DNA from: Cyanidioschyzon merolae
Taxonomy: Eukaryota
DNA length: 64,000 nt
NCBI GenBank assembly: GCA_000091205.1
Contig: AP006494.2
Reading direction: 5' to 3' (one strand)
Numbering within the stretch: position 1 is the first letter of the stretch; each line of letters starts with the position of its first letter. A model generated the notes under the pieces. The model did no database searches. It had not been told where the DNA came from and worked only from the letters and a program-made list of their open reading frames with translations. Both the position numbers and the translations under genes were made by a program. Positions 2,879 to 60,219 of the stretch are shown here, piece after piece.

Positions 2879-3286
2879 CTGGATCTCGAATCTTTGGAGT
2901 TGGCTCGGTAAGCCTAATAATGGCACCCGCACGCTCGAAGGCTTAGTACTCTTGTTCATAGCAATCTCTGCTTTTATCTTAAATTAGGTCTCTCGGAGCG
3001 GCCCGCGAGATTAAGCTCCCAGAATCGACCTGAAGGAACGATTCCCTTTCTTCATGCCTTAAACTACCTGAATATGAACGAGATTTCCCGAAAATATGCA
3101 CGCTACTGGCGAGCTAACGACGGTGTGAACCACATCACATTTGCTGTACGCTCTTCTGTTTCCAAAGCGGTGGGCATTGGGTTTGATTGAAAAGTGCTAC
3201 AAAATGAAGAAATACATAACAATAAGTTATGGATTTTTTGAATTCATCTAGTATTTATCTTCGATCCTAGCCTAAAACAAACGTGA

Positions 3287-10376: not shown

Positions 10377-10554
10377 GACGGACCGTCATATTCCAAACCC
10401 AAAGATGGAAAATTCATGTTCCGATAGAATTTCTCATAGAGCATAGTGCATGTTGCTGCGCGAGGCGGCCGCATGTATAGGACTGGGGAGGCGTTCGACT
10501 GTTCCAGGCTGCATACAGGAGGTGAAGCAGCACGGCTGCTGAAATGACGCTTCT

Positions 10555-11709
10555 CTAAGCGCTTCGAACGGGCAATTTCCATGACGCGGCGATTTCATCG
10601 AGCGCAGGCTGAATTTCTTGATACTGAAACTTAAGACCGCTTTGCAACAGACGCTTTGGGAGCACGCGTTGGCCCTGGAGCACAAGTTCCGCCGCTTCGC
10701 CAAGAATCAGTTGAAGTGTGAAACTGGGTACCGGTAGCCAGTTCGGGCGTTTGAGCGCTCTTGCAAGTGAATCGCAAAACTTTTGAAACTGAACTGGGGT
10801 TGGCGCCGTGACGTTGTACACACCTTGAAAATCGGGTGATTCCAGCTCGTGCATGATAATGTTCACCAGATCTTGAATGTGTATCCACGATATCCACTGG
10901 CGTCCAGATCCAATCGTTCCACCTATGAACAAGTTAAAGAGCGGAAGCATTCGGCTCAAAGCCCCCCCATCCGGGCCGAGTACTATGCCAAATCGATTGA
11001 TGACTGTCCGGATTCCCGCATCTTGAGCAGCTGCTTCCCACTTCTTTGCGACTGATGCTAAAAAGTCCGTCCCTATCGAAGGCGAATCCTCGTCGAACGT
11101 TTCTACTTCAGATGTACCGTAGTAGCCAACAGCAGATGTGGAGATGAGAACCTTTGGTTTCCTATCAGCATGATGAACAGCTCGGACGAGCTGAAGGGTC
11201 CCGTTCACGCGGCTCTCCAGAATGCGCCTCTTGCGCTCTGCCGTCCACCTACCTTCTGAAATGGGTTCGCCAGCTAGATTAATTATAGCATCACTTCCAG
11301 CCACTGCCTCCACGACCTCCTTTGCCGGCGCATCGGCAGCAGTCGCTTCAAAGTATATTGCTTCCACCTTATAGTTAAAGGTTTTGCGGGCTTTCTCAGT
11401 ATCACGCGCCAAAAGCGTCACCGCCTTCCCCGAACCGAGAAGTTTGCGCACAAGCGCCCGGCCAACAAAGCCTGAGCCGCCACTCACAAGCACGGTTTTC
11501 GCCCTAGTATCGGATGCCTCAATGCGTAGACTATTTTTGAAAGCCCGTCGAGCACAGCGATTTGACGATTGAAGACAGTTTCTAGGCTCTTGTTTGCACC
11601 AGTCACCTACGAAGCTCGAGACACGAGGACATGCTCCAGCAAAAGCAGGCGCGTGCAAAAGCGGTCGCTGCTGATTTGGCAGAGCCAACAAGCAAAAGAA
11701 AGACAACAT
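10555..11709 (-). CDS. SDR39U1: Epimerase family protein SDR39U1 (NAD-dependent epimerase plus DUF1731, YfcH-like)
   Basis: N-terminal Rossmann motif TVLVSGGSGFVGRALVRKLL. Length (~384 aa) and C-terminal region typical of the TIGR01777 family. ATG start. Confidence 0.8.
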   Translation of the reverse strand: MLSFFCLLALPNQQRPLLHAPAFAGACPRVSSFVGDWCKQEPRNCLQSSNRCARRAFKNSLRIEASDTRAKTVLVSGGSGFVGRALVRKLLGSGKAVTLLARDTEKARKTFNYKVEAIYFEATAADAPAKEVVEAVAGSDAIINLAGEPISEGRWTAERKRRILESRVNGTLQLVRAVHHADRKPKVLISTSAVGYYGTSEVETFDEDSPSIGTDFLASVAKKWEAAAQDAGIRTVINRFGIVLGPDGGALSRMLPLFNLFIGGTIGSGRQWISWIHIQDLVNIIMHELESPDFQGVYNVTAPTPVQFQKFCDSLARALKRPNWLPVPSFTLQLILGEAAELVLQGQRVLPKRLLQSGLKFQYQEIQPALDEIAASWKLPVRSA

Positions 11710-11823
11710 TCTTTATCCAGTCCAACAAATCGGACGTGGCTATGCGCTCTGTTCACACACGAAAGATAAAGTGTACACCTGTGCAGGGTTAAGAAAAATT
11801 TGACGTTTGTTCACGCGCTTCAG

Positions 11824-13225
11824 GGAAGCTACTTCCATGTCAGATCAAAACAGAACACGGAATTCTTCGCTCTCCTCCTGTATTTCCGTTCTTTCCCCAG
11901 CTTTTTCTAGATGAACAGCCTTGACCTTCGAAGCACATCAATGCGGACTTACGCACTCTTTCCTTGGTTTACGATACTGGTCATCTTTTCGGAGCAGTCC
12001 CTTCCTGTCGCTAGAATCCGTTAATTCGTCGAAACCACGATGATTCGCGACGCCCTCAACCCCACGTCAGTAAAATAACCGATACCATTATGCAGTTCTT
12101 ATCCAAAGGCCTCCATTCCTCCGCTTTTCCTGCATCAAGCATATCCAAATCATGAGTTCCCCAAGCTTTCGGTCTGACTGTTTCAAGGCAGCTCGCGGGC
12201 ACAGGGACGCGCTCCGCTGCATTGACGATGATAAGTACTCGACCAGGTTCCTTGACGACTTGATCAGGAGCTCATGCCAAAAGTTCACAGATTGTGTCAT
12301 ATCCGATGATAATGTCCGTCAGAAAGACAAACCATGTTGCCTTGTGTCCATCGATGTCGCGGGATTCCACAACAGCCTGATACCTTTCATGGGATATGCT
12401 CCTGGAGGCTCCCGTCGCTTCGCTTTGCATCCAAAATGGTCTCGGACTCGGACTTTGCTCATCTCAATGATCGCTTCCAATGGGTACTATGCAACTCTAT
12501 TGCACGAAGGGAGCGCGGATGGAGAGAATATTCTGGACTCGATCTCCAGCGTCGATATTTCTTCTGGTCCTTGTTTCACACTAGACGACATCGCTCTCCA
12601 CAAATCCGCTATCGAATGGGACAATGTGCGCCTACGCGCCCGTTGGACAGCGTACTCGCCGAGTTTGTCGCCTAGAAGAAACCCGTCGTCGTGCGGTGCA
12701 GCACTGGTTGCAGATGTCGCGAAGAGCATCCAGGGAGGACTCTGTGCCCTTCGGGGGCATGTATCGAGCGCTGAATCAAGTGCTCACGCGCCACGCGGTG
12801 GCGCTTGGAGGATGAGTTGTGGTGAGGATAAGGTCTCATCTACGCATAGCCTTGTGTTGCCGTTACGAAGCGAGCACAGGGGCTGTATACAAAGAAGGTG
12901 AATATGGCAAATGAAGCATACATTGCAACATTTGCCAATGCACGAAATGCGTCGACAATATCCCCGTGCGGTGTAATCGGGACTTGCACTGCCATCAGCA
13001 TCCATCGACATCAGATCTGGGAGTTGATGAGGCACGAGAGACCGGTGTACTCATAGCCAGAGACAAGATAAGGGAAAGGTAGGCAGTCTCGGAACAAGCC
13101 GCCAACAGCAGGTATCGATGATTGTGCGAAGAAACCCCAACTCGGAAGCGGGCGCTGGAGGAAAATCGATGGACCCGTAAAAATCTTGTCTGACAGAGTG
13201 TGGTGCGTTAATCGAGAAGAGTGAA
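11824..13225 (+). mobile_element. IR1-R: ~1.40-kb copy of a degenerate DDE_3 (IS630/Tc1-like) element, inverted partner of 6936..8326
   Basis: See IR1-L. Inner end 11824 lies 115 bp upstream of the epimerase ATG (11709, minus). Outer end near 13225. Confidence 0.75.
12152..12901 (+). pseudogene. DDE_3 (IS630/Tc1-mariner-like) transposase relic, 249-aa ORF, catalytically degenerate
   Basis: LVSIDVAGFH (DExGF-like first Asp box, Glu replaced by Val). GYAPGGSRRFALHPKWSRTR (YGWapkGerp-like). CFTLDDIALHKSAIEW (vlDNasiHKs second Asp box). WTAYSPSLSPRRNP (LPPYSPDLNPIE box with the catalytic Glu lost). N-terminal HTH region absent or disrupted. Confidence 0.7.
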
Positions 13226-13299
13226 ATCCAAATTGCGCGCCAGTTTTCATGGCGCCCCTGCGCATGATTTCTGACACGCGTTCTGTATTTTCAATTCAG

Positions 13300-14700
13300 A
13301 GCTACAGATCCCCGATCTCCACGCACGCTCGGTCTTGGCTCTCTTCCAATGGTTTGTAGGCGCAAATGTTCGGCGACATCGACGTCCGCCGTTTGTGGGC
13401 TCTTGGGTGCTTACTTCGCAGACAGATTTGGTTCTCCGTTACATGCTAATTATTGTTAGCACAACGAAAAACGATCTACCACATTAGGGTGCATGAGAAC
13501 GCACATGTCCAGACGCCTCCCAACCATTTTTGACAGGGTGCTTGCTATCAGTTCCAGCTGCTCCTTGTACACCTCTGGAATGGTAGGCTGACCCGCAAAG
13601 TCGGATCTTGTCAGCTCTTCAGGTCTCGTCCTCATAACCAAACATCGTCTGAAATTGTTGGCGGCGATGATGGCCCGGTTCAGGAACTCCAAGCGTTTAT
13701 TGCCACTGGTGGAACGGACTTGTGCAAGGAGTCCTCGAACTCGCGCCCTCTGTGCCATTCGCTGCTCTTTCAGCTCGCCGTGCTTTCCTATCGTCCAAGT
13801 GCTCCGCTGGCTTCTCTCGATCTCGAACTCGTGAAGTGTATAACCCATTGCATTCCTTATTTTCGAAAATGAACGCACTCGTTTATGCCGTTGGGTAGGG
13901 ACCTTCTCGGATGGATAAGGACTTATGGAAGAAAGACAAATACGCCCCGGTATCACCGTGATGAACGCGTCAGCGATTCACCCAGTAGAGCGATCGTAAA
14001 GATTAAGATAGGAGACACTGCTCGAGGAGATGAAGCATAGAGCGTACGGAGGAATGCAAAGCAGGCCAAGACCTATAGAACTGGCAAGAGCTCGAACGTA
14101 AAGGATATGGTGTAACATCACAGTTTCCAATAGAGGGAAGTCCCAAGATGTCAGGGAAGAGTCATCTATGATTCGACGAATTGGGTGCTGCTGTATGGGC
14201 CTTGTCTACGAGCGAGACTGACGCCGCAAAATATACCCACTGCAGCTAGAATAGATAATGACTTCGTTCTCATCGAGTTCGATCGTACATACAACGGGCC
14301 TGCTCCCAGAATACCCATCTGCGCTCCGACCGTTTCTCCCGAAGAGAGTCTCATGGGCTGGAAAAAGAAACCGAAATCCATGCGCATTATACGAATAGGG
14401 ACGTTCGCGGAATTCAGTAGTTGGCATATCTGTGGAGATCACCGTCATTGAAATTGGACTTTTTATGCGACTGTGTCCGAATGTTCTCAGGACCACACGA
14501 AAAGGCCTTTTGAGAAACAGAGGTGTTTGCGTTGGATACGGTCTTCGCTTTTGCCTTCTCTAAGGTGATCAACGAGCCGTTTTCTACAGTTGACCCCCAG
14601 CACGATTTGAGCACGTCGTTTTCTGGCGCAGAGCGTGTATACTTCTTTCTTACAGTGTTTGACAATCACTCGAGTCCTGCAGTGTGACTGCCCTGAAGGA
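13300..14700 (-). mobile_element. TnpB/Fanzor-like (RuvC-type OMEGA nuclease) element relic, copy A, pseudogenised
   Basis: ORF 13456..13956(-) contains RVRGLL..STSGNKRLEFLNRAIIAANNFRRCLVMRTRPEELTR, a DRDxNAAxNI-like RuvC-III motif after a degenerate zinc-ribbon region. Upstream frames (14414..14665(-), 14185..14451) parallel copies C and B. Shared nucleotide blocks ctatgattcgacgaattgggtgctgctgta (14166) and ..tacttctttcttacagtgtttgacaatcactcgagtcctg.. (14600s). Confidence 0.5.
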
Positions 14701-15094
14701 TGAATGTAGTCCTCCTTGCACTTCTCAGTAAAGAGTATATCCTATGGGCAACTCGTCAACGATCTATGCTGTACACTGCATCATGATTTCGATCATCTGC
14801 TTTACACTGGGAAAAAGCATAGATTACGCATAGCGGGGGTGAAATATATTTGATTTGAAAGACTAATAAGATCGTTGTCTGGTGCCGATTGCAATTAAAT
14901 TTGAGTAATATTTCCACCCAACACTGGGTTCGCGTGAAGGTTGCGAGAAGGGCTACAAGAGTTAAGCTCTTTCGAACTGGAGATATTCACCGTGGATCTT
15001 TCAGGTCCAAAAGGATATAAAAGAGCGCTTGAAGACATCTCTTCGTGCTTGCTATATTTGAAAGAGTCAAATATGAGAACTAGTATTTAGTTTA

Positions 15095-16822
15095 CATTCA
15101 GAGTACTAAATTCTTGAACAAGTCTACCGGCAGGTTATTTTTGTGTTTGGTTGTTTTTCCCACAGGTATTGAACAATAAGGTTGTCCGTTGGTGAGAGAA
15201 TGGCGGTGGATAGAGTTCATGCCATCGCCGCTAGCATACCGACACGGATCTTACTTGTACAAGTCAGTCATTTTACATTCAGCAGGTGCACCAGCGACCC
15301 TTGTGGCAGTGCTTGTTCTGAACATTGCGTACCCAAAATACAACGTACTACAATGTATATATTCGACAATCTTCTGATTCGCTCATTGTATCACATAGAT
15401 CCTCTGAGAAATACCATCTGCGAAGCCACATGATGTGGGGCTTTCACATCTTTCATACTAGCGGTGATAAACAGACACCGATGAACAGAAAAGTGCGCTG
15501 CGATGCACGACGATTGCGTGTTGCCAGCAGATTGTCGAATTCGCAGCGCAAGGCGAAGGCCCGCTGCAGGACTGACTGGCGTTCGTGTCAGTCGGTGATG
15601 CTCCATTTTGCAGAAACGATCAACTCGTATATATGTCCTCACATAGGGGCGACACGAAGTTCTTAAAGAGGCGACAAGCGACATTGAAGGCGGCATGAGC
15701 CCTAGCGGTGATTTCTTCTGGTGATCTCTTACAAATCGCCGAACGAAAGGACATTCCAATACCTCATCCTCCGGCGAGGCACCTCCTGGATTCCTTCACC
15801 CACATTCCTTGGTAATGCCCTTAGACAGTATTGCTTTCCCTCGCTAAACAGCGCTCAGGCAGTATGCAGCTGTATCTGTCGTTGAGCTGCCCTACTTTTC
15901 CAGAGATCGGCAGTGTCGGGAGTCGGGCCCCAGAGACGCCAAGAGGCGTACCGACCAATGAAATGACAGCGTCCGGACCCGTCACGACGCTCTGAGACTC
16001 GTGTCGAACGGAGTGGATGCTGTGTGAGATCCATTCATAGACACGTGCGCGTCCACGTGGCTCGTGGGGACGCTCCCTCGCAGATGCACTTGAGACGTCG
16101 CTGTGGTCATCAACAGCTTGGCTCTCCGGAGGCAGGAAGCGTGCATTCTCCAGCATATTCAATGAGTTAGCAACGTATCGGACCGATAACTCGCAACGCG
16201 TGGAGGTAGCGAATGGCGCTGGACGTGCACTCGCGAGCAACGGCTGCACTCATGCTCGGTCGGCGAGAGCGTGCAACCACAGCAGGAATCGATTCTTCAC
16301 GGCTCCCGTGGATGCGTTCAGAGCGACAAACACGCGTGACCAGCGCGAGTGCGCACAGTGACCGGTAGAGAAGAAGAGTGTGAAACAGAGCTGCATGCAC
16401 GTGGTGGTGTACGGTGAGCTGATTGAGCGCCGGATGGCGAGAGAATCGAGCGAGACGTGCTTGCTGTGATGCGCTTCAACAATCCAAAATGCGCTCAGGC
16501 ACGTCCTGCACCGAGACTCGAACGCCCAATCGGTATCTGGAAATGTTTCGTGCGTTCGGAGCGTCCAGCGGTTTGTGTCATACGTACATTCGAGGCAACT
16601 GTTTCATACTGAGTGTGGGGATTGTGCTGGAATGCTGGAGACTTGCGCTGAGAAAATCAGAGGCTGGCAGCAATAGGAGCGGATTCCGGCATGTAGCAGG
16701 GCAATAGTATGGTACGGTTAGGAATCCAGACAGGATGTGGCACAGCGTATATAGAGAGGAACCTGTTTCCCATGGTAGTTGGTAGACGATGCTAGTGTTT
16801 CTCTCTTTAAGATGCTATTGAT
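15095..16822. repeat. IR2-L: 1.73-kb arm of a near-perfect inverted repeat (partner 23683..25410)
   Basis: Reverse-complement identity; coordinates sum to 40505 with no indels over all checked stretches. Four ORF-track ORFs are identical on opposite strands and a fifth differs by one residue (AAGL/AGGL). Boundaries are where similarity decays (15095/25410 outer, 16822/23683 inner). Confidence 0.85.
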
Positions 16823-17463
16823 TATAGAACAGTTTACAAAGCTTGGGTTCTGAAATTCTCACGTTGATTTGTTCATTAATTGTCTTGTCGACTCCAACGA
16901 GCTCTTCGAGTGCTGTGCTAAATGAATCGATACTTCTTCAAGACGAAACATAGCATAGTGCTTTCAAGATGCGAGGTCTAGTACACTATTCATGTACTTC
17001 TGCATACAATGGAACTCCAAGACCGTGGGCACTTTTGGAGGTATCTGATTTCATTTTCGAAGTACCCCTGGCGGCGAGGGTTGGTGTGATCCGATTCAAT
17101 ACCCGTTCTAAAACGTCATTCAGGAGAAAGTCTCGCGAGAGTATTTCAGGTGTTTGATCGGCTAGTTGCTCATGGGTGTTATTGGGTATGCAGCTGTCCC
17201 AGTGAAATCGTCTGTGAGCTCTCGAAACAACTAAAGAAGCGGAGTACTTCGTAGAGTCCCATGACGAAAAGCATGCCTTGTCAAGCTGTGTCCGATGCTT
17301 CCCTTCTTCTTTGCTCGGTAACCGGTGCTTTATACACAAGAAGTTCATGTTTTCTAATTCAGTCAACGATGCCCATTAAAAACCAGGGAAGCATACTGAA
17401 AACTAGCGCATTCTAGCATGGATAAACAATTATTGTTTGGAGCGAAACGACTTGAGAAAAAGT

Positions 17464-18636
17464 CTACCCCCTTCGATACCGATTGCCTTCCCCGCGGCGA
17501 TGGTCGTCTTTGAAAAGATCCCATTTCCGCTTTGCAGCTATAATCTGGTCCTCAAGCTGCGTATCCCGGGCGCCATGTGTATCATTCAAATCCGTCTCCA
17601 GTGGCTTCTTTTGCGGCTCAGGTTGCGAATTATGCTCATCACGATGTATGTGAGCAAGGCAGCAGTCACCGAAAGGAAGCTTTGTAGGTGGCTCCTCTGA
17701 AGTAATCGTGCGCCCCTGCAGAAATCGTCGAAACGCATGCGCGTTCTCAAAGTACCTCGTTCGCGAGCAATGGTTGTCTATATATACAATTTTCGGCTTT
17801 CTTCGACCTAGCGTCTCCGCATCACAAGCATGCTTTTCGTCTGCCCTTACCTCTTTGACGGATTGCTCGTACTGAGAAGCCAGGGCCTCGAGAGCTGACA
17901 TCTCGCGACCGAGTTCATACCCGCGGATAAAAGCCCACTCAGCTGCAACCGCTATAAAGCGCAGAACAAGGTTTCGCTGTTCCTCTTCAGTATCCGAATG
18001 CACGTCCGTAGGCAGTAAAGGGAACGGAAGCGCTTCAAAAGCTGTTTTTTCGTGCATGCTACCTTTCATACATATCCGTTTCGAAAAATTGCGAACAAGA
18101 TCGCACAGTCTCCGCAGATTCCTCGTGAAGTTGATTTTTGCTTCCCGCACGCCCATTGGCAATTCCGCCCCGAGTTCTTCTGAAGTTAAATTACGGATTG
18201 ACTCCAGAAATGGGCTATCCAGACCAAACGGCCCTAGCCACAGGCAGCCCTGCACCAGCTTCAGGTATTGCTGGTACAGCTGCCGAACTTCGGCGCAGGC
18301 GCCTCTTCTCTCTGCATAAGTGTTTCGTTCTGAAAGCTCACCGAAACCTTTTCTTTCAAGCAACTTATCCGCAAGAATTGCGATGTAAAAGGGAAAAAGA
18401 ATAAAACTCTGTAGTCTCCAAGTCGGAACATCCTCCAAAGCGGAGTATTCACCATGACAACCAAGTTGAGTCCGAGCTACTCGGAGCGTTTCGAGTGCGG
18501 AACTCAGCTCGGAATCATTCACAAAAACCTCTCTCGCCGAAAAAGCTGCGTCGTCTAACGCTAGCCTTATTGCCAGGTAAACACTTTCGATAAGCTTATG
18601 ACCGTTTGCGTTTGAGGCTCGTTCCTCTGTGTTCAT
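17464..18636 (-). CDS. Hypothetical protein (390 aa) with a Cys/His-rich C-terminal region
   Basis: Long ATG-initiated ORF, divergent (74-bp spacer) from DegP. C-terminal KIVYIDNHCSRTRYFENAHAFRRF..CCLAHIHRDEH suggests a possible metal-binding region. No family assignable. Confidence 0.45.
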   Translation of the reverse strand: MNTEERASNANGHKLIESVYLAIRLALDDAAFSAREVFVNDSELSSALETLRVARTQLGCHGEYSALEDVPTWRLQSFILFPFYIAILADKLLERKGFGELSERNTYAERRGACAEVRQLYQQYLKLVQGCLWLGPFGLDSPFLESIRNLTSEELGAELPMGVREAKINFTRNLRRLCDLVRNFSKRICMKGSMHEKTAFEALPFPLLPTDVHSDTEEEQRNLVLRFIAVAAEWAFIRGYELGREMSALEALASQYEQSVKEVRADEKHACDAETLGRRKPKIVYIDNHCSRTRYFENAHAFRRFLQGRTITSEEPPTKLPFGDCCLAHIHRDEHNSQPEPQKKPLETDLNDTHGARDTQLEDQIIAAKRKWDLFKDDHRRGEGNRYRRG

Positions 18637-18757
18637 TGTGGAAGGTTTTTACCACACCGATAACGAGCATGCTTAAAAGAATCTTCAGGTTGCGCAGCAG
18701 CGTCGCTCTGTGGCATCGCGAGCGCTCAGTGTAGTGGTATTGGTGTTCCCCGGAGGG

Positions 18758-20290
18758 ATGCGTTCCCGAAACGCTACTCCACCTTGTTTCGTGCAGAAAC
18801 TGTTTCGGTTTTCGCGTAAGTGCACTTCTTTTCAGCAATGCGCTAGTGTTCAAATTGTGAAACGGGAGGCGCCTGGTTCAAGAGTGGTGGTGGCGCTTGC
18901 GTTCAACTACCACAACTGCCAAGCTGCACCACACGTTGGTAGCGAATTCCGGCAGGGCGAGGTTGCTCAAAGGATCGTTAAGTACAGGACTTCAGACGGT
19001 GGGGAACGGGCGGTCTCTGTTAGAATATTTGGGAAAGCGAAAGAGAATAAACAACAACACGTGGAGCCGCCGTCGCAGCAACCACTGCAAAAGCTGCCCA
19101 CGCAGCAGCAGGAACAGAAACCTGAGGCCACCGCCAGTGACTTTACAGCTCAGAACCGACGTCTCAGCAGCTCTTTCGTTACCAAGGCTGTCAAACTCGT
19201 AGGTCCCGCAGTGGTTCGAATAGATACGGAACGGGTCGTGCAGCTACCTGCAGATCCAGTGCTGGAAGATCCGCTTTTCCGATACTTCTTTGGCGATGAG
19301 TTTCAGCGACAGTTGCCGAAGGAGCGCACGGAGCGAGGCCAGGGGTCTGGGTTCTTCATTTCCTCCGATGGTCTGCTTCTAACGAATGCCCATGTTGTTG
19401 CAAAAGCATCGAAGGTAACCGTCACCTTAATCGACGGGCGCTCGTATCCAGGAAAAGTCGTGGGCACCGATGATCTACTCGACTTGGCTGTCATCCGGAT
19501 CGATACACATTCGGAGAAGGTCCCAACTGCTCCCTTGGGCTCATCCGGAGAGCTCCAGGTGGGAGACTGGGTCATTGCACTGGGCAATCCAGTCGGTCTT
19601 GACAATACAGTCACGTTGGGCATCGTGAGTAGCCTTAATAGGTCGAGCGCGGAAGTTGGCATTCCGGATAAGAAAATCAACTTTATTCAGACTGACGCTG
19701 CAATAAACCCTGGTAACAGTGGTGGTCCGCTCGTCAATGAATTCGGTGAAGTCGTCGGGATCAGCACAGCGATTAGGCCAAACGCGGAGGGCATCGGTTT
19801 CGCGATACCAATTGACACAGCGAAAGCTGTCCTCGACATGCTCGCGAAGGGCGAAAAAGTTCAACACCCATTCATTGGGATTCAGATGGTAACGCTCACG
19901 CCGGAACTTGCCAAACAGAACAACCAAGACCCTAATGCGCTCGCTCTTATTCCGGAGGTTTCGGGTGTACTTGTCCTGAAAGTCTTGCCCAAAACCCCCG
20001 CTGCAGAATCGGGACTTCGCCGATTCGATGTCATTCTCGCGGTGAACGGCAATGCGATATCAAATGCGAGAGATATTCAAAAAATCGTCGACAGCTCGAG
20101 GGTCGGTCAGGAGTTGAAAATACGGGTCCTTCGCGGCGTCGATGGAAAGACGATCGATATCAGTATCCGGACGGCAGACATGACGCAGTTTAGGTTAGAA
20201 GAAGAGAAGAAACTGTCACCGGAGGAGGGGCAGGAGGCACCTCCCGGCATAGTGCCCATGCCCCGCCATCGAAGATTCTCAATTCCCTAA
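18758..20290 (+). CDS. DEG: DegP/HtrA-family trypsin-like serine protease with one PDZ domain and a long N-terminal presequence
   Basis: GSGFFISSDGLLLTNAHVV (His box), DLAVIRID (Asp), GNSGGPLVN (Ser box), followed by a PDZ-like region. The track ORF starts at a GTG (18710); first ATG is 18758. About 130 aa precede the protease core. Confidence 0.85.
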   Translation: MRSRNATPPCFVQKLFRFSRKCTSFQQCASVQIVKREAPGSRVVVALAFNYHNCQAAPHVGSEFRQGEVAQRIVKYRTSDGGERAVSVRIFGKAKENKQQHVEPPSQQPLQKLPTQQQEQKPEATASDFTAQNRRLSSSFVTKAVKLVGPAVVRIDTERVVQLPADPVLEDPLFRYFFGDEFQRQLPKERTERGQGSGFFISSDGLLLTNAHVVAKASKVTVTLIDGRSYPGKVVGTDDLLDLAVIRIDTHSEKVPTAPLGSSGELQVGDWVIALGNPVGLDNTVTLGIVSSLNRSSAEVGIPDKKINFIQTDAAINPGNSGGPLVNEFGEVVGISTAIRPNAEGIGFAIPIDTAKAVLDMLAKGEKVQHPFIGIQMVTLTPELAKQNNQDPNALALIPEVSGVLVLKVLPKTPAAESGLRRFDVILAVNGNAISNARDIQKIVDSSRVGQELKIRVLRGVDGKTIDISIRTADMTQFRLEEEKKLSPEEGQEAPPGIVPMPRHRRFSIP

Positions 20291-20501
20291 AGCAAAAGCG
20301 TCATAGGTGTTTTGCCAATCACGGCTTTCACTAATACGTGCAGATGAAACTGATTGGATATCGCGCCTCGGCACTTAGGCTCCCGTATATTACTTCGCTC
20401 GTGTGAGAGCGTTTGGAGGAGCCTCAACAATGTTCATCCTTGCGGATCGTAAAATTTTCTACACCATTCTCTCGTGCAAAACGTTCGGATCCACTTCGCG
20501 T

Positions 20502-21329
20502 TCATAGGCTGCTCTGGTCCATCCGAGCAATCCGCTGCTCTTCAGCCAGGATGCTTTCTGTCAAGAGATCTGGAGTAGGACACTGACGTATCCAAAAGCC
20601 TTCATGATCCATAAAACTGAAAAGGTCTGGAGCAGAACGTCCCGACTGGGCCTGCCGCAGCAAAGGAACGTATAGATCACAAAACTCATACAGGCTCTCG
20701 GAGAATCTTGCAGGTAATCCATCAGTATATGCAACCGTTTCCACTAGAGCGACTTTTTGATCCCTGCTTGCAAAACATAGCATGACTGGAAGAGCGTGCG
20801 CAGCGAGCAGTTCGTGAAGTTGACTGCATTGCTTGGCACTTCGCACACCAACTAACCACAACAGGAGCCGTTCACTGAAGAGAGCCGTAAGTTCAGAGAA
20901 AGAGGCAAGTTCCTGGCAAAGTGCGCAACTCCGTTCAAGATGTGATTCATGCTCGTCCACGCAAAGCAGTAGAGCTACTAGTGGCATACCTCGTTCCTCG
21001 CTCACGCCTAAGGCACTCACGAGGTCGCTGGCAGCCCTCCCAAGGTCTAAGACCTTCAGTTTGGCCAAATTATGTTCAAGATCATTTCGTTTCCGAGTGC
21101 ACTGCTCTTCCAGGAACTCGTGCAACTTCGCACCGCACATAGCTTCCTGTGAACGGAGGACGGTACTGAGCTCCTCGACTGTGGTGAAGCGTCCACCTGC
21201 ACCGGTTCCACCATTTAGCGACGACATGGCTGCTCGTGGTGCCTCTGCTCGCCGTAAAGCATCCAAACATACTTGTGTGCTTGTCGCGGAAGCTTTTGAG
21301 TGGCCGAGCGCTTCCCCACTATAGCGCAT
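20502..21329 (-). CDS. Hypothetical protein (275 aa)
   Basis: ATG-initiated long ORF. No recognisable motif. Confidence 0.4.
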   Translation of the reverse strand: MRYSGEALGHSKASATSTQVCLDALRRAEAPRAAMSSLNGGTGAGGRFTTVEELSTVLRSQEAMCGAKLHEFLEEQCTRKRNDLEHNLAKLKVLDLGRAASDLVSALGVSEERGMPLVALLLCVDEHESHLERSCALCQELASFSELTALFSERLLLWLVGVRSAKQCSQLHELLAAHALPVMLCFASRDQKVALVETVAYTDGLPARFSESLYEFCDLYVPLLRQAQSGRSAPDLFSFMDHEGFWIRQCPTPDLLTESILAEEQRIARMDQSSL

Positions 21330-21783
21330 CCGAGAAAGAGCTGCTGTAACCCGTCGCAGAGCAACAAATGCTATCCTTGTGTCGCAGACTTCTCGAACAC
21401 CAGCATGGGCTGTTCGAGCCGCCCTGGGTTGCTGCTCGCCCTGTGCGTCACAGAGTTCATCAGGTGTTCCGCCACGTGAGGTATAATGTGCTCTTCACAA
21501 CCAATATTCGGCCCGATCTATTCCCATGTTGTCCCTGCTGTACACTTCGTGCACATATGTGCACACAGGTTTTGTTCAACCAGCGCCCTCATTTTGAGAC
21601 GGACCTCCTTTTTCTGTAAGATGTTGACTTTCACGAACATGATCTGGAAGAATTCCTCTCAAAGACTGTGTATGTTAGCGTATTTCGAAGCGCCCCGGGA
21701 GAGAGGCTGACGGTTGTTTTGTTGCAGTACGCGGTGCCCAGTGAAAGCTTCTGCTTTGACTCGACTGGTGCCACGATACGCAC

Positions 21784-22284
21784 GTGGACACGTACTCCGA
21801 AAACAGTCGTTTCGTTTGGAGAAATATTGGAATTGTGATAGCTCTTCGCTATAGTGAGACAGGACTTTTGTTTGTGCTTGGAACAACCTACTTGCTCTGG
21901 GACACGTATGACTCTGATGTGAAGGCCGTTCACGCAGCAGATTGCGTGACACGGTCGGTGGAGTTTGCGCCGTGTACGGAAAGATCGTTTGTAACTTTAT
22001 CCGGAGATCTCAACTCAACGCCCGAATTGCATGAGATAGAGCTGCCTCTGAATGGTTCAACGATTCTGCCGAGCCTTGGAGCCAGTGCACCTTGCAGTGA
22101 TTCGAGGACCACGGAAGCCTCCCTATCCTCGCCAACAACTCCGAGCCCTGGAACGGCTTACTCGAAAGCAAGATTCGCTCGCTATCCCCGACTTCCAGAG
22201 GAACGTATTGTGCAGCTTCCAGAAAATCAAACTTTGTGCCATACGTACGATGCGATGGTAACGGATGTGCTCGAGCCTCTGTGA
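21784..22284 (+). CDS. Possible small membrane / Ser-Thr-Pro-rich protein (166 aa), doubtful
   Basis: Hydrophobic segment NIGIVIALRYSETGLLFVLGTTYLLW followed by an S/T/P-rich tail. Lies in an otherwise gene-free 2.3-kb stretch. Confidence 0.2.
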   Translation: MDTYSENSRFVWRNIGIVIALRYSETGLLFVLGTTYLLWDTYDSDVKAVHAADCVTRSVEFAPCTERSFVTLSGDLNSTPELHEIELPLNGSTILPSLGASAPCSDSRTTEASLSSPTTPSPGTAYSKARFARYPRLPEERIVQLPENQTLCHTYDAMVTDVLEPL

Positions 22285-22736
22285 GCGACTCGGAGGAAGA
22301 AGTTTTGTATAAGTTATTGACTCTATTCTCACTCAACCATCGCATGCCGCTGCGGAACAAATCCTTTGCTCTTCAGAGGGTTTCGAGGAAGAATCTTTTA
22401 GTCCAATGATGTATCCCCTTCGGGTCACTTCCCCGCTGTGGCACACACAAGCTTTATGTCGGATCTGAGTCAGTGCGATTTCTCGAACGTCATTGCTTGG
22501 TTTTATAAGAAAACAAAGGGGCACCACTTGCCCAGGGTTTGGTTCATCGCGAACACTTGATCGTGAACATCGGAACATCGCTCTATTGCGAAGCTGGTTG
22601 CACCGAGCCACAGAAGAGCGGTATTTCTAGCAAGAGGCTCGACCCGAAACTCTGAAGAACACCATCGGATGAAGTGAGAGCATTATCACACTGTCCGACG
22701 TGGCCTGTGAGCGCCGACACTCATCCAATATATTCG

Positions 22737-22780
22737 TGTTCACGAGCTGCTGTTGCATAGAAAAACCGCAACAGCAGCAG
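22737..22780. repeat. Perfect 11-bp-stem hairpin (gctgctgttgc ... gcaacagcagc, 11-nt loop)
   Basis: Read directly from the sequence at 22739-22779. Confidence 0.6.
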
Positions 22781-23682
22781 CTGCTACAACGAGCGTTCCT
22801 CTGGTGTGCGACACCGGCAGGATTTACATCGGGCGCAGAGCCTCTCAACAGCGTGAGGCGGTTTTATGTCTCAAATGCCGGTGCGAGCCGTTCAAAGCAA
22901 ACATTTTGCATTGAGGAATACTACACTGCCAGCATCTTGTTCATAATAGATTCATGACACCGAGGAGGTTTCGTAGAGAATACGTGATAAGAGTCTGAGC
23001 ACATTCCTGAGGAGTTTGCGCTACATCGGTGTGCCGTATGGAGCATTTTATGGACGGAAAAGTATGAGGGCACGAAACTTCAGAACCTCGAATCAAACTG
23101 CAACATATCTACAAACTGTCAAATAGGACGTCCACTTGCCTTGTCTCTATTCTTCTACAGGTAACAGGGACTGATGCAATGAATTTTTAGTGGCGTATTG
23201 GAATCCGGGCCGAATATCCAAAGAGGCGCTGGATGCTCGATTTCCAATCTGTAGCCGCGCATCCGGGCAAGGTTGCTCGGAAAACCGGTCTATTTCGGCA
23301 GCAGTCCGCAGTTCGCGACCTCAGACATTGCGCGCGGACTACACACTAGAGCAGAGCATGCGGCTGGCCGCCCTGCATCCTGATGCAACCACAGACGCAG
23401 TAGGTAGCCTCGACAACAATAGACCGAAGCGTTGCGCATCAAGGCACTTTTGGTGGTTGCTCGCGGACGAAAAATTTTATCCCAGTTTTTCCACTTAAGA
23501 TCGTATGAACACGAGATTCCCAACCAACATGCCTAATAACAACAAGAGATAGAGCAAATCTATCACAGAATTTGAATTATGAAGGTCTTCATTCGATGTG
23601 AAGCTTTTACAAGCGTTATAAACACCTGCGGATTCGAACGCATATACTGTTGCTATCAAAAGCGTCTGATACATATCCTACA

Positions 23683-25410
23683 CTCAATAGCATCTTAAAG
23701 AGAGAAACACTAGCATCGTCTACCAACTACCATGGGAAACAGGTTCCTCTCTATATACGCTGTGCCACATCCTGTCTGGATTCCTAACCGTACCATACTA
23801 TTGCCCTGCTACATGCCGGAATCCGCTCCTATTGCTGCCAGCCTCTGATTTTCTCAGCGCAAGTCTCCAGCATTCCAGCACAATCCCCACACTCAGTATG
23901 AAACAGTTGCCTCGAATGTACGTATGACACAAACCGCTGGACGCTCCGAACGCACGAAACATTTCCAGATACCGATTGGGCGTTCGAGTCTCGGTGCAGG
24001 ACGTGCCTGAGCGCATTTTGGATTGTTGAAGCGCATCACAGCAAGCACGTCTCGCTCGATTCTCTCGCCATCCGGCGCTCAATCAGCTCACCGTACACCA
24101 CCACGTGCATGCAGCTCTGTTTCACACTCTTCTTCTCTACCGGTCACTGTGCGCACTCGCGCTGGTCACGCGTGTTTGTCGCTCTGAACGCATCCACGGG
24201 AGCCGTGAAGAATCGATTCCTGCTGTGGTTGCACGCTCTCGCCGACCGAGCATGAGTGCAGCCGTTGCTCGCGAGTGCACGTCCAGCGCCATTCGCTACC
24301 TCCACGCGTTGCGAGTTATCGGTCCGATACGTTGCTAACTCATTGAATATGCTGGAGAATGCACGCTTCCTGCCTCCGGAGAGCCAAGCTGTTGATGACC
24401 ACAGCGACGTCTCAAGTGCATCTGCGAGGGAGCGTCCCCACGAGCCACGTGGACGCGCACGTGTCTATGAATGGATCTCACACAGCATCCACTCCGTTCG
24501 ACACGAGTCTCAGAGCGTCGTGACGGGTCCGGACGCTGTCATTTCATTGGTCGGTACGCCTCTTGGCGTCTCTGGGGCCCGACTCCCGACACTGCCGATC
24601 TCTGGAAAAGTAGGGCAGCTCAACGACAGATACAGCTGCATACTGCCTGAGCGCTGTTTAGCGAGGGAAAGCAATACTGTCTAAGGGCATTACCAAGGAA
24701 TGTGGGTGAAGGAATCCAGGAGGTGCCTCGCCGGAGGATGAGGTATTGGAATGTCCTTTCGTTCGGCGATTTGTAAGAGATCACCAGAAGAAATCACCGC
24801 TAGGGCTCATGCCGCCTTCAATGTCGCTTGTCGCCTCTTTAAGAACTTCGTGTCGCCCCTATGTGAGGACATATATACGAGTTGATCGTTTCTGCAAAAT
24901 GGAGCATCACCGACTGACACGAACGCCAGTCAGTCCTGCAGGGGGCCTTCGCCTTGCGCTACGAATTCGACAATCTGCTGGCAACACGCAATCGTCGTGC
25001 ATCGCAGCGCACTTTTCTGTTCATCGGTGTCTGTTTATCACCGCTAGTATGAAAGATGTGAAAGCCCCACATCATGTGGCTTCGCAGATGGTATTTCTCA
25101 GAGGATCTATGTGATACAATGAGCGAATCAGAAGATTGTCGAATATATACATTGTAGTACGTTGTATTTTGGGTACGCAATGTTCAGAACAAGCACTGCC
25201 ACAAGGGTCGCTGGTGCACCTGCTGAATGTAAAATGACTGACTTGTACAAGTAAGATCCGTGTCGGTATGCTAGCGGCGATGGCATGAACTCTATCCACC
25301 GCCATTCTCTCACCAACGGACAACCTTATTGTTCAATACCTGTGGGAAAAACAACCAAACACAAAAATAACCTGCCGGTAGACTTGTTCAAGAATTTAGT
25401 ACTCTGAGTA
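23683..25410. repeat. IR2-R: 1.73-kb arm of a near-perfect inverted repeat (partner 15095..16822)
   Basis: See IR2-L. Outer end is 52 bp upstream of the HIG1 ATG (25462). Confidence 0.85.
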
Positions 25411-25461
25411 TAACGCTGAGCACCTCCCTAACTATACTGGGAGCGAGCTGTTTTTCGAGAC

Positions 25462-25749
25462 ATGGTTGATTCACGTGAAAGCGAAGATGCTGGTGAGAGT
25501 CCACTGGAGAACTACACTCCAAACAGACCAACTCTAGACAAGTTCAAGAAGAACCCCTTGGTGCCCGCCGGCGCCCTCCTTACTGCTATAGTGCTTGCCG
25601 GTGGAATTACTGCTTTCCAGAGGGGAAACGTTATCTGGAGTCAAAGGATGATGCGGGCACGTGTTGCAGCGCAAGGCGCGACGTTGCTCATTTTGGCTGC
25701 TTCAGTGGGCGCGTTCAGAGGGGGGCCCTCCCCGCAGTCGACGAAGTGA
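25462..25749 (+). CDS. HIG1: HIG1 (hypoxia-induced gene 1 / Rcf1-like) domain protein, 95 aa
   Basis: KFKKNPLVPAGALLTAIVLAGGITAFQRGNVIWSQRMMRARVAAQGATLLILAA matches the HIG_1_N pattern (KxxENPLVPIG..., two TM helices, QRxxxxRVxAQG). Confidence 0.7.
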   Translation: MVDSRESEDAGESPLENYTPNRPTLDKFKKNPLVPAGALLTAIVLAGGITAFQRGNVIWSQRMMRARVAAQGATLLILAASVGAFRGGPSPQSTK

Positions 25750-25857
25750 GTGCTGCGTCGTGAGCAGCACTAGGAAGCCAAGGCTCCCTTTCGTCTGCTG
25801 TATTCCTGTGCGAATGAGTACTCGTCGGACGTGATTAAGCGCTTCGCGACTGGTTGT

Positions 25858-25925
25858 CTTTGGGTGTGCTTGCTTGTGTACGTGTCTGTCTGCCTGTCAG
25901 CCTGTCTGCCTGTTTGGTTTCTTGT
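25858..25925. repeat. Low-complexity (ctgtctgcctgt-like) tract
   Basis: gtgtctgtctgcctgtcagcctgtctgcctgtttgg. Confidence 0.5.
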
Positions 25926-26048
25926 CCAATGCCATGCTGAACTACAGCGACATACTGACTCGCAGCTTTGATGGTCTTTTACATTAAATGTACAGGCAGT
26001 GTGCGTGACGGGTATAGGCTGGTGGCATGTGCCGAATAAGCTCCGGGT

Positions 26049-27143
26049 CTATCGCGCAGGGGCGTTTCTATTCATGGGAAACACCACAGAGTCGCCAAGA
26101 GGTATTGATCTGGTGCTGATGGAGGCATATTCCCAGACGTCTCTGTCGATTTTCAGCGGACAGCCAGCGAGAAATGCAAAAACCGCACCGTCGCTGCCTC
26201 TCATCCGCACAAACCAGGGCTGTCTCTGTGAGCTACGCAGCTCAAGACACACGTATGCACGGAGCTGCTCAGGGTTCCTTCGCGATACGGGCGCGAGAAC
26301 CACCTGGAGTATGTCGCTTTGAAGCCGTTGACGAATTAAGTCCAGAAACAGCGCGTGAGCGCCCTGCAGCCTTTTGGATCGGATGGCATTCAGCAGGGCA
26401 GAAAAGAGCAAGTTCGACTCTCGTATTTCTGAGCTCTCTCGAGCCTGCATAAGCTTGTAAATGCTCTTCACTTCGGTGAATACGTCTCTACTTCTCCACA
26501 GATATTGTAAGAGCTTGAGCCGCATCTGAATGGAGAAGGATCCCGCAGACATTCGACTTCGAGGCTCTCGCTCAGCGAAAGCAGCAGGTGGCTCAGTGTG
26601 CACTATGCTCAGGACAATCATATCCCGCTCCAGCTTGTCCTCAAGGAATAAAGGGAGAAGCCTTTCCGTGGCCGGCGCCGAGAACTCATCCGCCCGACCC
26701 GTGGCCCGGCGTGATTCTGTAGAAATCAAGTCCTTATCGAAGTTATGGTCTTGTCGCTTATTCCAGCCCTGAAAGCGCTTGCCTGAGGTGGCCTGTTTCG
26801 AATCTAGCAGGGCGAGGTACAGTACGTAGACCTCAGGTGTCCCTGGAAGCGTAAGTGTCTCTGACCGCTCAAGCACAAGTTCTATGCCGTTGCTTTCATC
26901 AAACTGAAAAGTACTTAGCTTAGGCAAATCGAAGCTACTACGCAGATAGAAGGAGCGCTTGTGCTGCGCTGCAGACCGCACAATGGCAGGGCCTTTCCCC
27001 CGGACGGCTTCGAAACCGTGGGCCTTTCGCTTGCGAACGAGGAACAGTTCGCGCGTCGCTTCCGTAACAGTTGCGTGTGAGGCCAGCTTTCTTCGCTCAG
27101 CAAGACGTGAATTGCTTGCTAACGGGACAGGAAGACTCCACAT
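26049..27143 (-). CDS. Hypothetical protein (364 aa)
   Basis: ATG-initiated long ORF. No recognisable family. Confidence 0.4.
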   Translation of the reverse strand: MWSLPVPLASNSRLAERRKLASHATVTEATRELFLVRKRKAHGFEAVRGKGPAIVRSAAQHKRSFYLRSSFDLPKLSTFQFDESNGIELVLERSETLTLPGTPEVYVLYLALLDSKQATSGKRFQGWNKRQDHNFDKDLISTESRRATGRADEFSAPATERLLPLFLEDKLERDMIVLSIVHTEPPAAFAEREPRSRMSAGSFSIQMRLKLLQYLWRSRDVFTEVKSIYKLMQARESSEIRESNLLFSALLNAIRSKRLQGAHALFLDLIRQRLQSDILQVVLAPVSRRNPEQLRAYVCLELRSSQRQPWFVRMRGSDGAVFAFLAGCPLKIDRDVWEYASISTRSIPLGDSVVFPMNRNAPAR

Positions 27144-27479
27144 TCGATATTTGAGTCACTATACAGTCCAAGAAGAGAGATATAACGAACGGTGTTTGGA
27201 GAAATCAGCCGACCACACCGTGTAAGGCGACACCACGATCGAATTTGCTATCTATATATATTCAGTGGTTCAACCGTTTCCCGGTCTTGCGTGTCAATTT
27301 TCCGAAATTGTTTAGATGTAGTCTCGACATTCGATGTGCGACAACATTTGCATATGTGATTATACGCATTTTTCGAGCTCTCGGCGTTGTTTTCGTTGTG
27401 GCTCCTTCGTCTCTTTGCAGATGGTAACTTTACGTCACCAGAATAAAAATGAGTCGTGATGTGTTCGAACAAGAGTTCG

Positions 27480-28260
27480 TAAAACAATATATATCATGAA
27501 CCGAGTCGAACGCACACTGCATCACTCTTCGCTTTTTTCATGTACAGCAATCTCAAATCACACATTCTTCAAGTATTAGGTCGTTCTGTTTGAGGCCAAC
27601 TGGTATGTGCAGTGGTTCGCGCTGCCAGATCCACTACTGAAAAAACTTGACGTCGCCCCTTGACACGCTCCTCACGCGCTCATGCCAGGAGTTTTACTGA
27701 ATTTGTCACATTAAACAATCGATTCTGTTCGCAATGCAAATCCGCCTCTCTATTTGGTCGTCGACGAAACCGGATTCCCCATCAGGTTGATAGGTCTGAC
27801 GGGATATGCTCCCGGAGGCTCTCATCCGTTCCGCTTGCATGGAATAGAGCCTCAGACTCGCTCTTCAATCATCGCGAGGATCGCTTCCAGAGGAGCGTGC
27901 GCCACTGCTTTCCACGAAGAGAGCTTAGACAGATCGAATTTTCTCGAATTGTTTTGCAACCTGGATATTCCTTCTGTTCCATGTTTCATCATGGACGACA
28001 TTGCGTTCCACAAATCCTCGATCGACTGGTACAGTGTGCACATGCGCATGCTGCTGATAGAGTACTCGTCGATGTCATTGTATGCAAGAAGCTCTTGATC
28101 ATAGTGTACTGCGCCGTGCTTAGATACGAAGGAGCGTATTCGAAGAAGCCTTCTATACCCGTCAAGCGTATGCGCCGAGCGATGAAGCACGTGTTGATCC
28201 ACCATAGTGCTGTGCTCGGAGGAAGAGAGGCGGTGCATGTATGATTACGCCTGCCAACAG
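27480..28260 (+). mobile_element. Diverged DDE_3 (IS630/Tc1-like) transposase relic, copy 4
   Basis: ORF 27754..28098 reads MVVDETGFPIRL (classic DExGF), GYAPGGSHPFRLHGIEPQTR, CFIMDDIAFHKSSIDW. Aligns with the IR1 copy at about 50-60% aa identity. Confidence 0.6.
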
Positions 28261-29212
28261 CCGAGTGTCACCGTTGCGAAAGACGCGTAGAAGCACCATA
28301 CAGGGAAGATGAAATCGGCGAGCGAAGCTTAAATTGCAACTTCCGCCTGTAAAAGAAGTGCGTCACAAAAAGACGGAGGCGCAGAAGATGAGACTCTAAC
28401 GCAGCCATCAACATACTTCGACAGCTGACAACGGTGCCGGAGGGAGAAGAGAGACTGCCATATTTGAAGACCGGGGATGAGATAGGGTAAAAGGAAGCAA
28501 TGGGAAAAAGCCTAAAAAGGATGAAGATGTTAACGCTGGGAAGAAACCTAAAGTTTAGAGTGTGCGTCCGAGTTTGCAGATCTGTTCCAGTTCATTCTGA
28601 CATGGGTGTAATGATATATAGCTATTCCGCGATAATCGACTGCTGCTCCAGCGAATGCAGCTGTAGGACTCCTGCAATCGTTGCGGCATCTGCAGATTCC
28701 TTACGCTCAGTGCATCTTTAAAATTTCGTCCCCTGTACTCGACGTGTCCGCGCATGGCTCGCTCTTGTAACCAAAAGACGCGCTACAGGGGCCGAGTCAC
28801 AAGCCTCTGCAGAGTTGCTCCAAGCAAAGGTCGAGTCTGCGTACAAAGCGCACTACATCTGCGCGAGAAGACGCACCTACTTGGTGCCCAGATAGAGCGT
28901 TTCTTCCAACGGATGAAAGGCGCTCACAATCCTGAATCTCGAAAAGCGCGGCAGATATTAATCCAGTTGCCCAGCTTCGAAATTTGCCAAGCTTTATTGG
29001 TCCTCGTCGTGATGGCAAGAGCTCGCGGAATAGAGACAGCCCGATGAAAATAGACTGACTCTTCGTGCATTGTGATGCACCCTCTAGTGAACTTGTGCAC
29101 CGGGGCAGCAACCCGAGCCCGAGCCCGAACTCCTGCAGCACTAGTCCCGCAGCATCAATGCAAGGATGAAGCGCTGAACTAGCCAAATCCCATCAGAGAA
29201 TGGACGCTACCA

Positions 29213-30895: not shown

Positions 30896-31111
30896 AAAGG
30901 CCGTCACACTCGGTCCAGCGGTTGCAAATGTTCTGTGCGTAGTGACTAGTTTGCGTCAACGCTGGGTCAGAGCACTTGCACCGCCCTACGGCGCAAGCGT
31001 ACTTGTCCCGCCAAATGTCAGGCCACGACGCTTATTACGTTTGTGCATTTCGTGGCTCGCACTGCTACATAACTTGCCACGAAGTTCCTTTGAAGGTGAG
31101 AGTAGTTTTCC
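30896..31111. promoter_or_regulatory. Putative bidirectional promoter between CDC23(-) and the ABHD gene(+)
   Basis: 216-bp divergent intergenic spacer. Inferred from gene arrangement only. Confidence 0.3.
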
Positions 31112-60185: not shown

Positions 60186-60219
60186 CGTTTTGCAGAACAA
60201 GCTGAACAAACCTCACGGG

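Follow-up and report, generated by a model that had tools for sequence, protein, structure and literature searches.

Chromosome 12 of Cyanidioschyzon merolae 10D carries a 6.85-kb block of genes that is enclosed by two near-identical copies of a 1.72-kb sequence in opposite orientation. This inverted repeat was analyzed within a stretch of 64,000 nucleotides, hereafter called the window, to which all positions refer. Its arms contain the relic of a transposable element (TE) of the Fanzor1 type, and they flank genes that are found in the same order and orientation in a related species where the repeat is absent. We consider it likely that the arms represent a TE-derived two-copy unit around an ancestral four-gene block, that gene conversion is responsible for their near-identity, and that passive flip-flop of the block is possible. 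The papers that could be searched mention no repeat or inversion at this locus, and the structure adds a hitherto undescribed case to a known kind, involving no new element or mechanism.

A repeat search covering positions 13000-27500 returned one inverted pair, whose arms (Table 1) are separated by 6850 nt and were subsequently compared base by base. Partner coordinates sum to 40505 and no indels are present, as the initial annotation of this DNA had read them, and the inverted repeat is confirmed as real, with a match far beyond chance. Six of the 1736 nucleotides are mismatched (15095, 15097, 15544, 15563, 16822, and 16824), while the exact core of 1724 nt contains two mismatches and no indels (99.88% identity). 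The identity of at least 99.8% that had been given for the arms holds for this core, but not for the span 15095-16822 to which it was applied (five mismatches in 1728 nt, 99.71%). At both ends, four of the six bases just beyond the core still pair. Homology ends sharply at the outer arm end, and at the inner arm end it fades across about 20 nt (10 of 19 positions match, p=0.009) before reaching chance level. As had been noted, the right arm stops just upstream of the HIG1 gene, with about 50 bp between its outer end and the ATG (25462). The claim that the arms are far more alike than the other repeats of the window had to be given up, since a second inverted pair (6925-8314 and 11832-13224, here called IR-1) reaches 99.2% identity.

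Exact-protein look-ups and one metagenome DNA scan retrieved about 30 independent contigs from populations resembling C. merolae. All four arm junctions are reproduced base for base in independent MEGAHIT, JGI, and Logan assemblies of many samples. The junction of the left flank with the arm is present in contigs L013, L016, and L022-L027, and the junction of the arm with the HIG1 flank in L001-L010, L014, L017-L019, and L021. Contig L011 (7198 nt, MEGAHIT) consists of the inner block with 168-174 nt of arm per end, its ends being mutually reverse-complementary. Furthermore, L001 and L021 start 9-25 nt from the inner edge of the arm, several JGI contigs on the HIG1 side terminate 124-130 nt into the arm, and the unique 1.87 kb that separate the two repeats of the window form a contig of their own (2.0-2.25 kb) in many samples. 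Contigs consisting of the arm only were found with 1724 nt (exactly the core length; Logan, ENA, and JGI) and 1699 nt (L015). These break points match those expected of a true two-copy repeat, which leads us to reject an assembly artifact, one of the explanations offered initially.

One contig behaves differently at the arm boundaries. L001 (ENA ERZ27247235 k141_521875, MEGAHIT) corresponds to window 23692-35753, crosses the outer arm boundary unbroken, and ends at the inner boundary. Two identical arms in this sample should have broken the assembly at the outer boundary, too; the left junction may be missing from this strain or be poorly covered.

With regard to copy number, an exact 26-mer from the outer end of the arm is found in only four JGI contigs, all of them from this locus, and every contig with arm open reading frames (ORFs) maps to this locus as well. 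In the recovered data, the 1.7-kb unit is confined to two sites, and the arm has two outer contexts only, except in contig L010 (jgi 3300052695 Ga0506597_010862). Here, positions 1-107 join the right arm at window 25325, and the last 83 nt of this arm and the HIG1 flank follow. These 107 nt are without a match in the window and in all retrieved loci, and L010 could be chimeric, or the arm end could have a third context or a structural variant.

The arms were initially described as having neither recognizable coding capacity nor similarity to the two TE families elsewhere in the window. On the contrary, they hold a Fanzor1-like pseudogene, four relatives of which lie outside the arms in the window. 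In a tblastx comparison, arm positions 16137-16331 match window positions 59589-59783 (E 7e-8), which lie within a diverged interspersed-repeat copy. An exhaustive HMMER search of 1.8 billion proteins with the arm pseudo-ORF at 16041-16358 (+) yielded 27 homologs (best E 1.3e-12). The longest of these (P0049, 699 amino acids, aa) was aligned by tblastn to 15896-16009 and 16122-16526 with 41% identity (E 1.5e-22) through its segments aa 453-490 and 528-661. The relic is riddled with stop codons and is thus a pseudogene. When the arm was compared to a longer relative in contig L031, matches were obtained at 15655-15751 and 15861-15893, followed by a match at 15896-16564 with a nucleotide identity of 65%. 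L031 holds an extra 1.68 kb between its arm-matching blocks, so the arm is an internally deleted derivative.

The family proteins contain the motifs VVAYGAGR, VDEFRTTYTH, RGLLWC, and NRDLNAAxNIRRC, which we take to be RuvC-II/III-like motifs of the TnpB/Fanzor type. They also gave sub-threshold matches to Cas12f1-like_TNB (PF07282, E 0.011) and guided_TnpB (NF040570, E 0.022), and a PHROGs search returned nothing useful. Pfam did not match the long arm ORFs (142, 122, and 113 aa) or the pseudo-ORF, so that the relic came to light only through exhaustive HMMER and tblastn searches. Exact-protein look-ups of the 390-aa, 275-aa, 122-aa, and 83-aa ORFs were likewise without a match. No element termini are shared between the arm and other copies of the family, the similarity being limited to 15655-16654. 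The possibility of a structured RNA, a check that had been proposed for the arms, was also followed. Rfam at E<=1 over 14500-26000 and a tRNA scan of the window were both empty, and a structured RNA gene in the arms was no longer considered.

Contig L031 (Logan SRR5248875_1010958; 1-311 and 393-3071) derives from another Cyanidiales genome, in which the longer arm relative stands directly after the 3' end of a copy resembling the Fanzor1 element CMe-1A. This suggests a nested or tandem Fanzor1 insertion, as at the left flank of the window.

In C. merolae, CMe-1A is present in about 150 copies of roughly 3 kb, which have neither terminal inverted repeats nor a target-site duplication (Bao and Jurka 2013, PMC3627910). 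Independently, 253 copies of a 3.2-kb element were reported, the ORF of which resembles WSV486 of white spot syndrome virus (WSSV) (Nozaki et al. 2007, PMC1955436), and WSSV is listed among the Fanzor1 carriers (Bao and Jurka, PMC3627910). The family of the arm relic is CMe-1A, which is the 253-copy repeat of Nozaki et al. and the commonest repeat family of the genome. The relic is homologous to the C-terminal third of the TnpB-like protein of the family, in the expected order and orientation, the arms lack terminal inverted repeats as the family does, and internal-deletion derivatives are known for the family. On the other hand, the arm element is dead and has diverged far from the other copies (35-49% at the protein level), it is present in the recovered data as exactly two near-identical copies, and about 40% of the arm is without detectable similarity to the family. 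Moreover, the arm has an 8-bp flanking repeat, whereas no target-site duplication can be defined for the family. The four diverged Fanzor1-type copies in the window are about 67-77% identical to one another. The copy at 58043-60063 spans aa 31-687 of the 699-aa family protein; it is broken by stops and frameshifts, and the RuvC-III-like motif FVNRDFHAAINLRRC is still legible in it.

The origin of the arms was addressed with an outgroup, a related species (probably Cyanidiococcus) represented by contigs L028-L030, whose DegP is 82% identical. The gene order in the outgroup is E2F/DP(-), epimerase(+), 668-aa(-), TAP42-like(-), DegP(+), 239-aa(-), Exo_endo_phos(+), HIG1(+), and 354-aa(-), and its locus is free of inverted repeats and of DNA resembling the arms or Fanzor elements. 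TAP42-like, DegP, the 275-aa gene, and Exo_endo_phos have the same order and orientation in the window and in the outgroup. As the block is syntenic in this repeat-free species, both arms were added beside a resident block in the C. merolae lineage, and the window shows the ancestral orientation. The intergenic DNA of the outgroup has no alignable similarity to the arms and is uninformative as to which arm is ancestral.

A direct repeat, AGTTTACA, surrounds the left arm (p about 0.003, with offsets scanned) and is conserved in all contigs and strains in which the left junction was recovered. The repeat suggests that the left copy arose by insertion, in which case the predicted pre-insertion site would be TATTTAGTTTACAAAGCTT, with one copy of AGTTTACA. 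Since the pair is intact only in the orientation of the window, it agrees with the outgroup that this orientation is ancestral. A direct duplication of at least 5 bp around the whole 10.3-kb unit was not found.

The likeness of the arms was examined across lineages, for which short arm fragments were compared by coordinate placement. Within the 10D genome, the arms differ at 2 of 1724 positions (0.12%). Orthologous arms differ from those of 10D at 16 of 1716 positions in L001 (0.9%), 21 of 1700 in L015 (1.2%), 9 of 356 in L002 (2.5%), and 6 of 199 in L016 (3%). In one Yellowstone population, the left arm (L013) and the right arm (L017) show 0% difference over the core. The outer junctions are identical in a divergent lineage, although its left flank (L016) is 2.5% and its HIG1 flank (L002-L010) about 1% different from 10D. 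Junctions that are common to lineages 1-3% apart imply that the structure predates the split of the C. merolae lineages. At arm positions 19, 40, 88, and 129, both arms of 10D read G, A, T, and C, and in the divergent lineage T, G, C, and A are found in the left (L016 and L022) as well as the right (L002 and L005) arms. At positions 447 and 466, where the 10D arms are mismatched, L001 and L015 carry the right-arm alleles and the right arm of L014/L017 carries the left-arm alleles, a patchwork typical of conversion. Arms that are more alike within a genome than between lineages, together with shared derived variants, are the signature of gene conversion. Of the explanations considered initially, ongoing gene conversion is therefore supported, with junctions shared across 1-3% divergence and within-genome arms differing by at most 0.12%. 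Polymorphism relative to L017/L018 is uneven along the locus, amounting to about 0.2% in the inner block (16828-23677) and the arm and to about 0.5-0.7% in the HIG1-side flank (25414-34680).

The initial annotation further proposed that the enclosed block could flip. In L013, the left flank is followed by the arm and then by the reverse complement of 23682-22603, so that the block is flipped. The 54-kb contig L017 runs from 110 nt of arm through the reverse complement of the entire inner block and the other arm to the HIG1 flank, and L019 is arranged in the same way, whereas L018 (28 kb) is collinear with the window. All these contigs are short-read assemblies, and short reads can neither span nor phase an identical repeat of 1.7 kb. 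An inversion within identical arms leaves every junction unchanged, so that such contigs cannot show the phase. Flip-flop inversion of the block is thus plausible, as both orientations occur among the contigs, but unproven, because these assemblies do not demonstrate it. When all long ORFs of the block and its surroundings were scanned with Pfam, TAP42, the trypsin/PDZ protease, HIG1, and the DDE_3 transposase of the other repeat were returned, but no tyrosine or serine recombinase. Homologous recombination through arms of this size is an efficient route of DNA integration in C. merolae, so general recombination would suffice for an inversion. That the block exists in both orientations in natural, perhaps clonal, populations through general homologous recombination, and forms a cluster of invertible cassettes together with IR-1, is a tentative idea that we currently hold to be rather doubtful. 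It is speculative that active Fanzor copies elsewhere cut the arm ends via guide RNAs and thereby stimulate recombination. Rearrangements between 10D and MS1 have been reported for chromosomes 3 and 19.

The neighboring repeat IR-1 provides a second case. Its arms contain six mismatches and five gapped columns in about 1390 nt, and each carries a DDE_3 (IS630/Tc1-like) transposase ORF. Only eight class II elements have been reported for the whole genome, and the IR-1 arms are two of them. The inner segment (8315-11831) encloses a 689-aa protein, which is the homolog of the 668-aa protein of the outgroup, and an epimerase/DUF1731 gene. These two genes are inverted compared to the outgroup, whereas the flanking E2F/DP and TAP42-like genes are collinear, and L013 shows IR-1 in the outgroup-like orientation. 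The inverted IR-1 segment is independent support for the principle of inversion.

Several other explanations of the structure have to be weighed against these results. Assemblers are known to fail on long perfect inverted repeats, and the orientation of the inner block varies among assemblies, as it might if a repeat in the reference had been collapsed or mis-joined or if the palindrome were chimeric. With the junctions recovered independently in many samples, contig breaks falling where a genuine two-copy repeat predicts them, and a 10D genome that was finished telomere to telomere (PMC1955436), such an error is extremely unlikely. The arms could also be two members of an ordinary high-copy dispersed repeat that by chance lie close to each other in opposite orientation, as the family from which they descend is the most abundant one in the genome, with 150-253 copies, and has four more members in the window. 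These other members, however, have only about 65-75% nucleotide or 35-49% protein identity to the arm or to each other, and the outer 26-mer and the arm ORFs were found only in contigs of this locus, with just two outer contexts (L010 aside), which makes a chance pair quite improbable.

A very recent inverted duplication or second transposition in the 10D lineage would need no gene conversion, and it would account for the mere two differences in 1724 nt and for the 8-bp repeat around the left arm that is still perfect. It does not account for outer junctions that are identical where flanks differ by 1-2.5% and arms by 0.9-3%, which places the structure before the split, nor for the four lineage-specific variants in both arms of the divergent lineage and the patchwork of alleles at positions 447 and 466. 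A very recent duplication as the sole cause, which the initial annotation had also put forward, is unlikely given that the junctions are shared by lineages 1-3% from 10D, and an origin of this kind retains only a small probability. Alternatively, the whole 10.3-kb unit could be a mobile composite element (a composite transposon, foldback element, or Polinton), with the arms as long terminal inverted repeats carrying four captured genes. The geometry fits, the arms are TE-derived, and the neighboring IR-1 is likewise composite-looking. Yet the enclosed genes and both flanking genes have the same order and orientation in the arm-free outgroup, which identifies the block as resident, no transposase, integrase, or polymerase is encoded inside, and the Fanzor relic is dead, so we regard this origin as very unlikely. 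Transposition of the whole unit as such was rejected on account of the missing flanking duplication and the conserved synteny. Finally, a programmed switch, in which a site-specific recombinase or a nuclease-triggered flip alters the expression of HIG1 or of the enclosed genes, might be read from the two orientations among the environmental contigs and from the right arm adjoining the HIG1 start codon. No recombinase gene lies in or beside the structure, though, and homology is uniform over 1.7 kb rather than organized into short recombination sites. The intergenic promoter regions of the enclosed genes are their own (a spacer of 120 bp separates the divergent TAP42-like and DegP genes), and with identical arms flipping alters no junction sequence. 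A switch of this type is hardly credible.

The reading that we prefer, a TE-derived pair of arms homogenized by gene conversion around a resident block, also has points that weigh against it. As for the conversion, the left arm of the divergent lineage was recovered from other samples than its right arm, and it has two private differences (positions 94 and 98), which indicates incomplete homogenization. The assignment to Fanzor is based on literature, motifs, and the two sub-threshold hidden Markov model matches. Searches of PDB sequences with P0049 and with the family profile gave no Fanzor or TnpB match, and the AlphaFold model of P0049, at a predicted local distance difference test score (pLDDT) of 48, is too poor for fold comparison. 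Similarity to Fanzor is undetected in the outer ~560 nt (15098-15654) and the inner ~170 nt (16655-16821) of the arm, so the unit may include sequence that is not TE-derived, with true transposon termini undefined. The two AGTTTACA copies do not adjoin the exact core, their offsets being 1 nt and 9 nt, and could be due to chance or be a repair footprint, and the right arm has no target-site duplication around it. With regard to inversion, the left-flank segment remains a separate unresolved contig in the samples that yielded L017, L018, and L019, L017 and L019 are essentially one population (one mismatch in 8359 nt), and the orientations seen in metagenomes may be arbitrary paths of the assembler. 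The restriction to two sites, moreover, holds only within the recovered contigs.

On balance, the following scheme for the TE-derived arms is proposed. Two opposite copies of one 1.72-kb unit, built around the internally deleted Fanzor1 relic, would have come to flank an ancestrally contiguous block. We infer that the left copy was inserted, a step that would have generated the 8-bp target-site duplication. Repeated intrachromosomal gene conversion would subsequently keep the arms near-identical. When the same homologous recombination is resolved as a crossover, the 6.85-kb block would be inverted with its junction sequences unchanged. The inversion would thus be a passive flip-flop that requires no dedicated recombinase.

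The features of the locus are listed in Table 1. The content of the block differs from the initial description, which mentioned two orphan genes and a gene-free tract of 2.3 kb. The 390-aa gene encodes a TAP42-like protein, an ortholog of the 275-aa gene exists in the related species, and the supposedly empty tract is the site of an Exo_endo_phos pseudogene. By their Pfam matches (TAP42-like, trypsin/PDZ protease of HtrA type, HIG1 domain), the ORFs inside and beside the repeat are of eukaryotic character. This pseudogene has several in-frame stops and a frameshift, whereas its outgroup ortholog (375 aa) is intact and lies between the 239-aa gene and HIG1. DegP and HIG1 correspond to CML185C and CML188C in a published orthogroup table (PMC13353863). 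The HIG1 protein is identical to BAM80787.1, and the adjoining 364-aa protein is identical to CYME_CML189C. The TAP42-like and DegP genes are divergent, with about 120 bp (18637-18757) between their start codons, and they likely share a bidirectional promoter that would be carried along if the block inverts.

Table 1. Features of the inverted repeat, the enclosed block, and related sequences in the window
Feature	Position	Strand	Basis or remark
Left arm	15092..16827	+	Core 15098-16821 (1724 nt); 3-6 nt partial matches per edge
Right arm	23678..25413	-	Reverse complement of left arm; core 23684-25407
Fanzor1/TnpB-like relic in left arm, internally deleted and stop-interrupted	15655..16654	+	tblastx, HMMER, tblastn, comparison with L031
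Mirror Fanzor1-like relic in right arm	23851..24850	-	tblastn matches 24609-24496 and 24383-23979
Direct repeat AGTTTACA, left copy	15089..15096	+	Perfect 8 bp; candidate target-site duplication
Direct repeat AGTTTACA, right copy	16831..16838	+	9 nt past left-arm core
Enclosed block	16828..23677		6850 nt; gene order and orientation as in outgroup
TAP42-like gene, 390 aa	17464..18636	-	Pfam PF04177, E 1.3e-8; outgroup ortholog with 42% identity
HtrA/DegP-type serine protease gene, CML185C, 510 aa as annotated	18758..20290	+	Pfam Trypsin_2 and PDZ; BAM80785.1
Conserved hypothetical gene, 275 aa	20502..21329	-	No Pfam match; 239-aa outgroup ortholog, 42% identity, E 4e-51
Exo_endo_phos (CCR4/nocturnin-like) pseudogene	21425..22455	+	tblastn of intact outgroup gene, E 5e-54
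HIG1-domain gene, CML188C	25462..25749	+	BAM80787.1; directly outside right arm
Fanzor1-type element fragment, left flank	13504..14801	-	Head-to-head with left-arm relic
Further diverged Fanzor1-type copy	40585-42059	+	
Further diverged Fanzor1-type copy	51265-52742	-	
Further diverged Fanzor1-type copy	57945-60189	+	

C. merolae 10D serves as a model organism, prized for a genome that is minimal and completely finished and for the efficiency of its homologous recombination. A near-perfect repeat of kilobase scale around DegP and beside HIG1 therefore matters for gene targeting, PCR design, and read mapping. It also provides a clear case from nature in which dead transposon copies of a haploid nuclear genome evolve in concert and, together with IR-1, a tractable locus for measuring the rates of mitotic inversion and conversion. 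If the tentative idea of a block that exists in both orientations is true, one of the simplest eukaryotic genomes would contain a small cluster of invertible gene cassettes.

Large inverted repeats that combine concerted evolution with flip-flop are known from the inverted repeats of plastids, the yeast 2-micron plasmid, and the inverted-repeat centromeres of Komagataella phaffii. The locus described here resembles them in its inverted arms of kilobase scale, which are near-identical within a genome and diverge between lineages, and in that recombination between the arms would invert the middle and leave the junctions unaltered. It differs in being a single-copy nuclear locus that has no dedicated recombinase (the 2-micron plasmid has FLP), the coexistence of isomers is only plausible here, and the content suggests no role in replication, centromere function, or copy control. 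In the mating-type switching of Ogataea polymorpha and K. phaffii, an inversion between inverted repeats of about 2 kb places the locus beside silencing chromatin. There as well, a nuclear block lies between kilobase-scale inverted repeats, general homologous recombination is used, and one side borders a repeat-rich region; the genes of the present block, in contrast, are of the housekeeping type, with no mating-type content and no sign of silencing or regulated switching. Inversions mediated by TEs through ectopic recombination between opposite copies are also known from Drosophila, the Ty elements of yeast, and the insertion sequences (IS) of bacteria. As in those cases, opposite copies of a transposon-derived sequence flank resident genes at the present locus, and the IR-1 segment is inverted compared to the outgroup. 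Unlike in those cases, the arms are non-autonomous relics kept identical by conversion, and the inversion of the block is only suggested.

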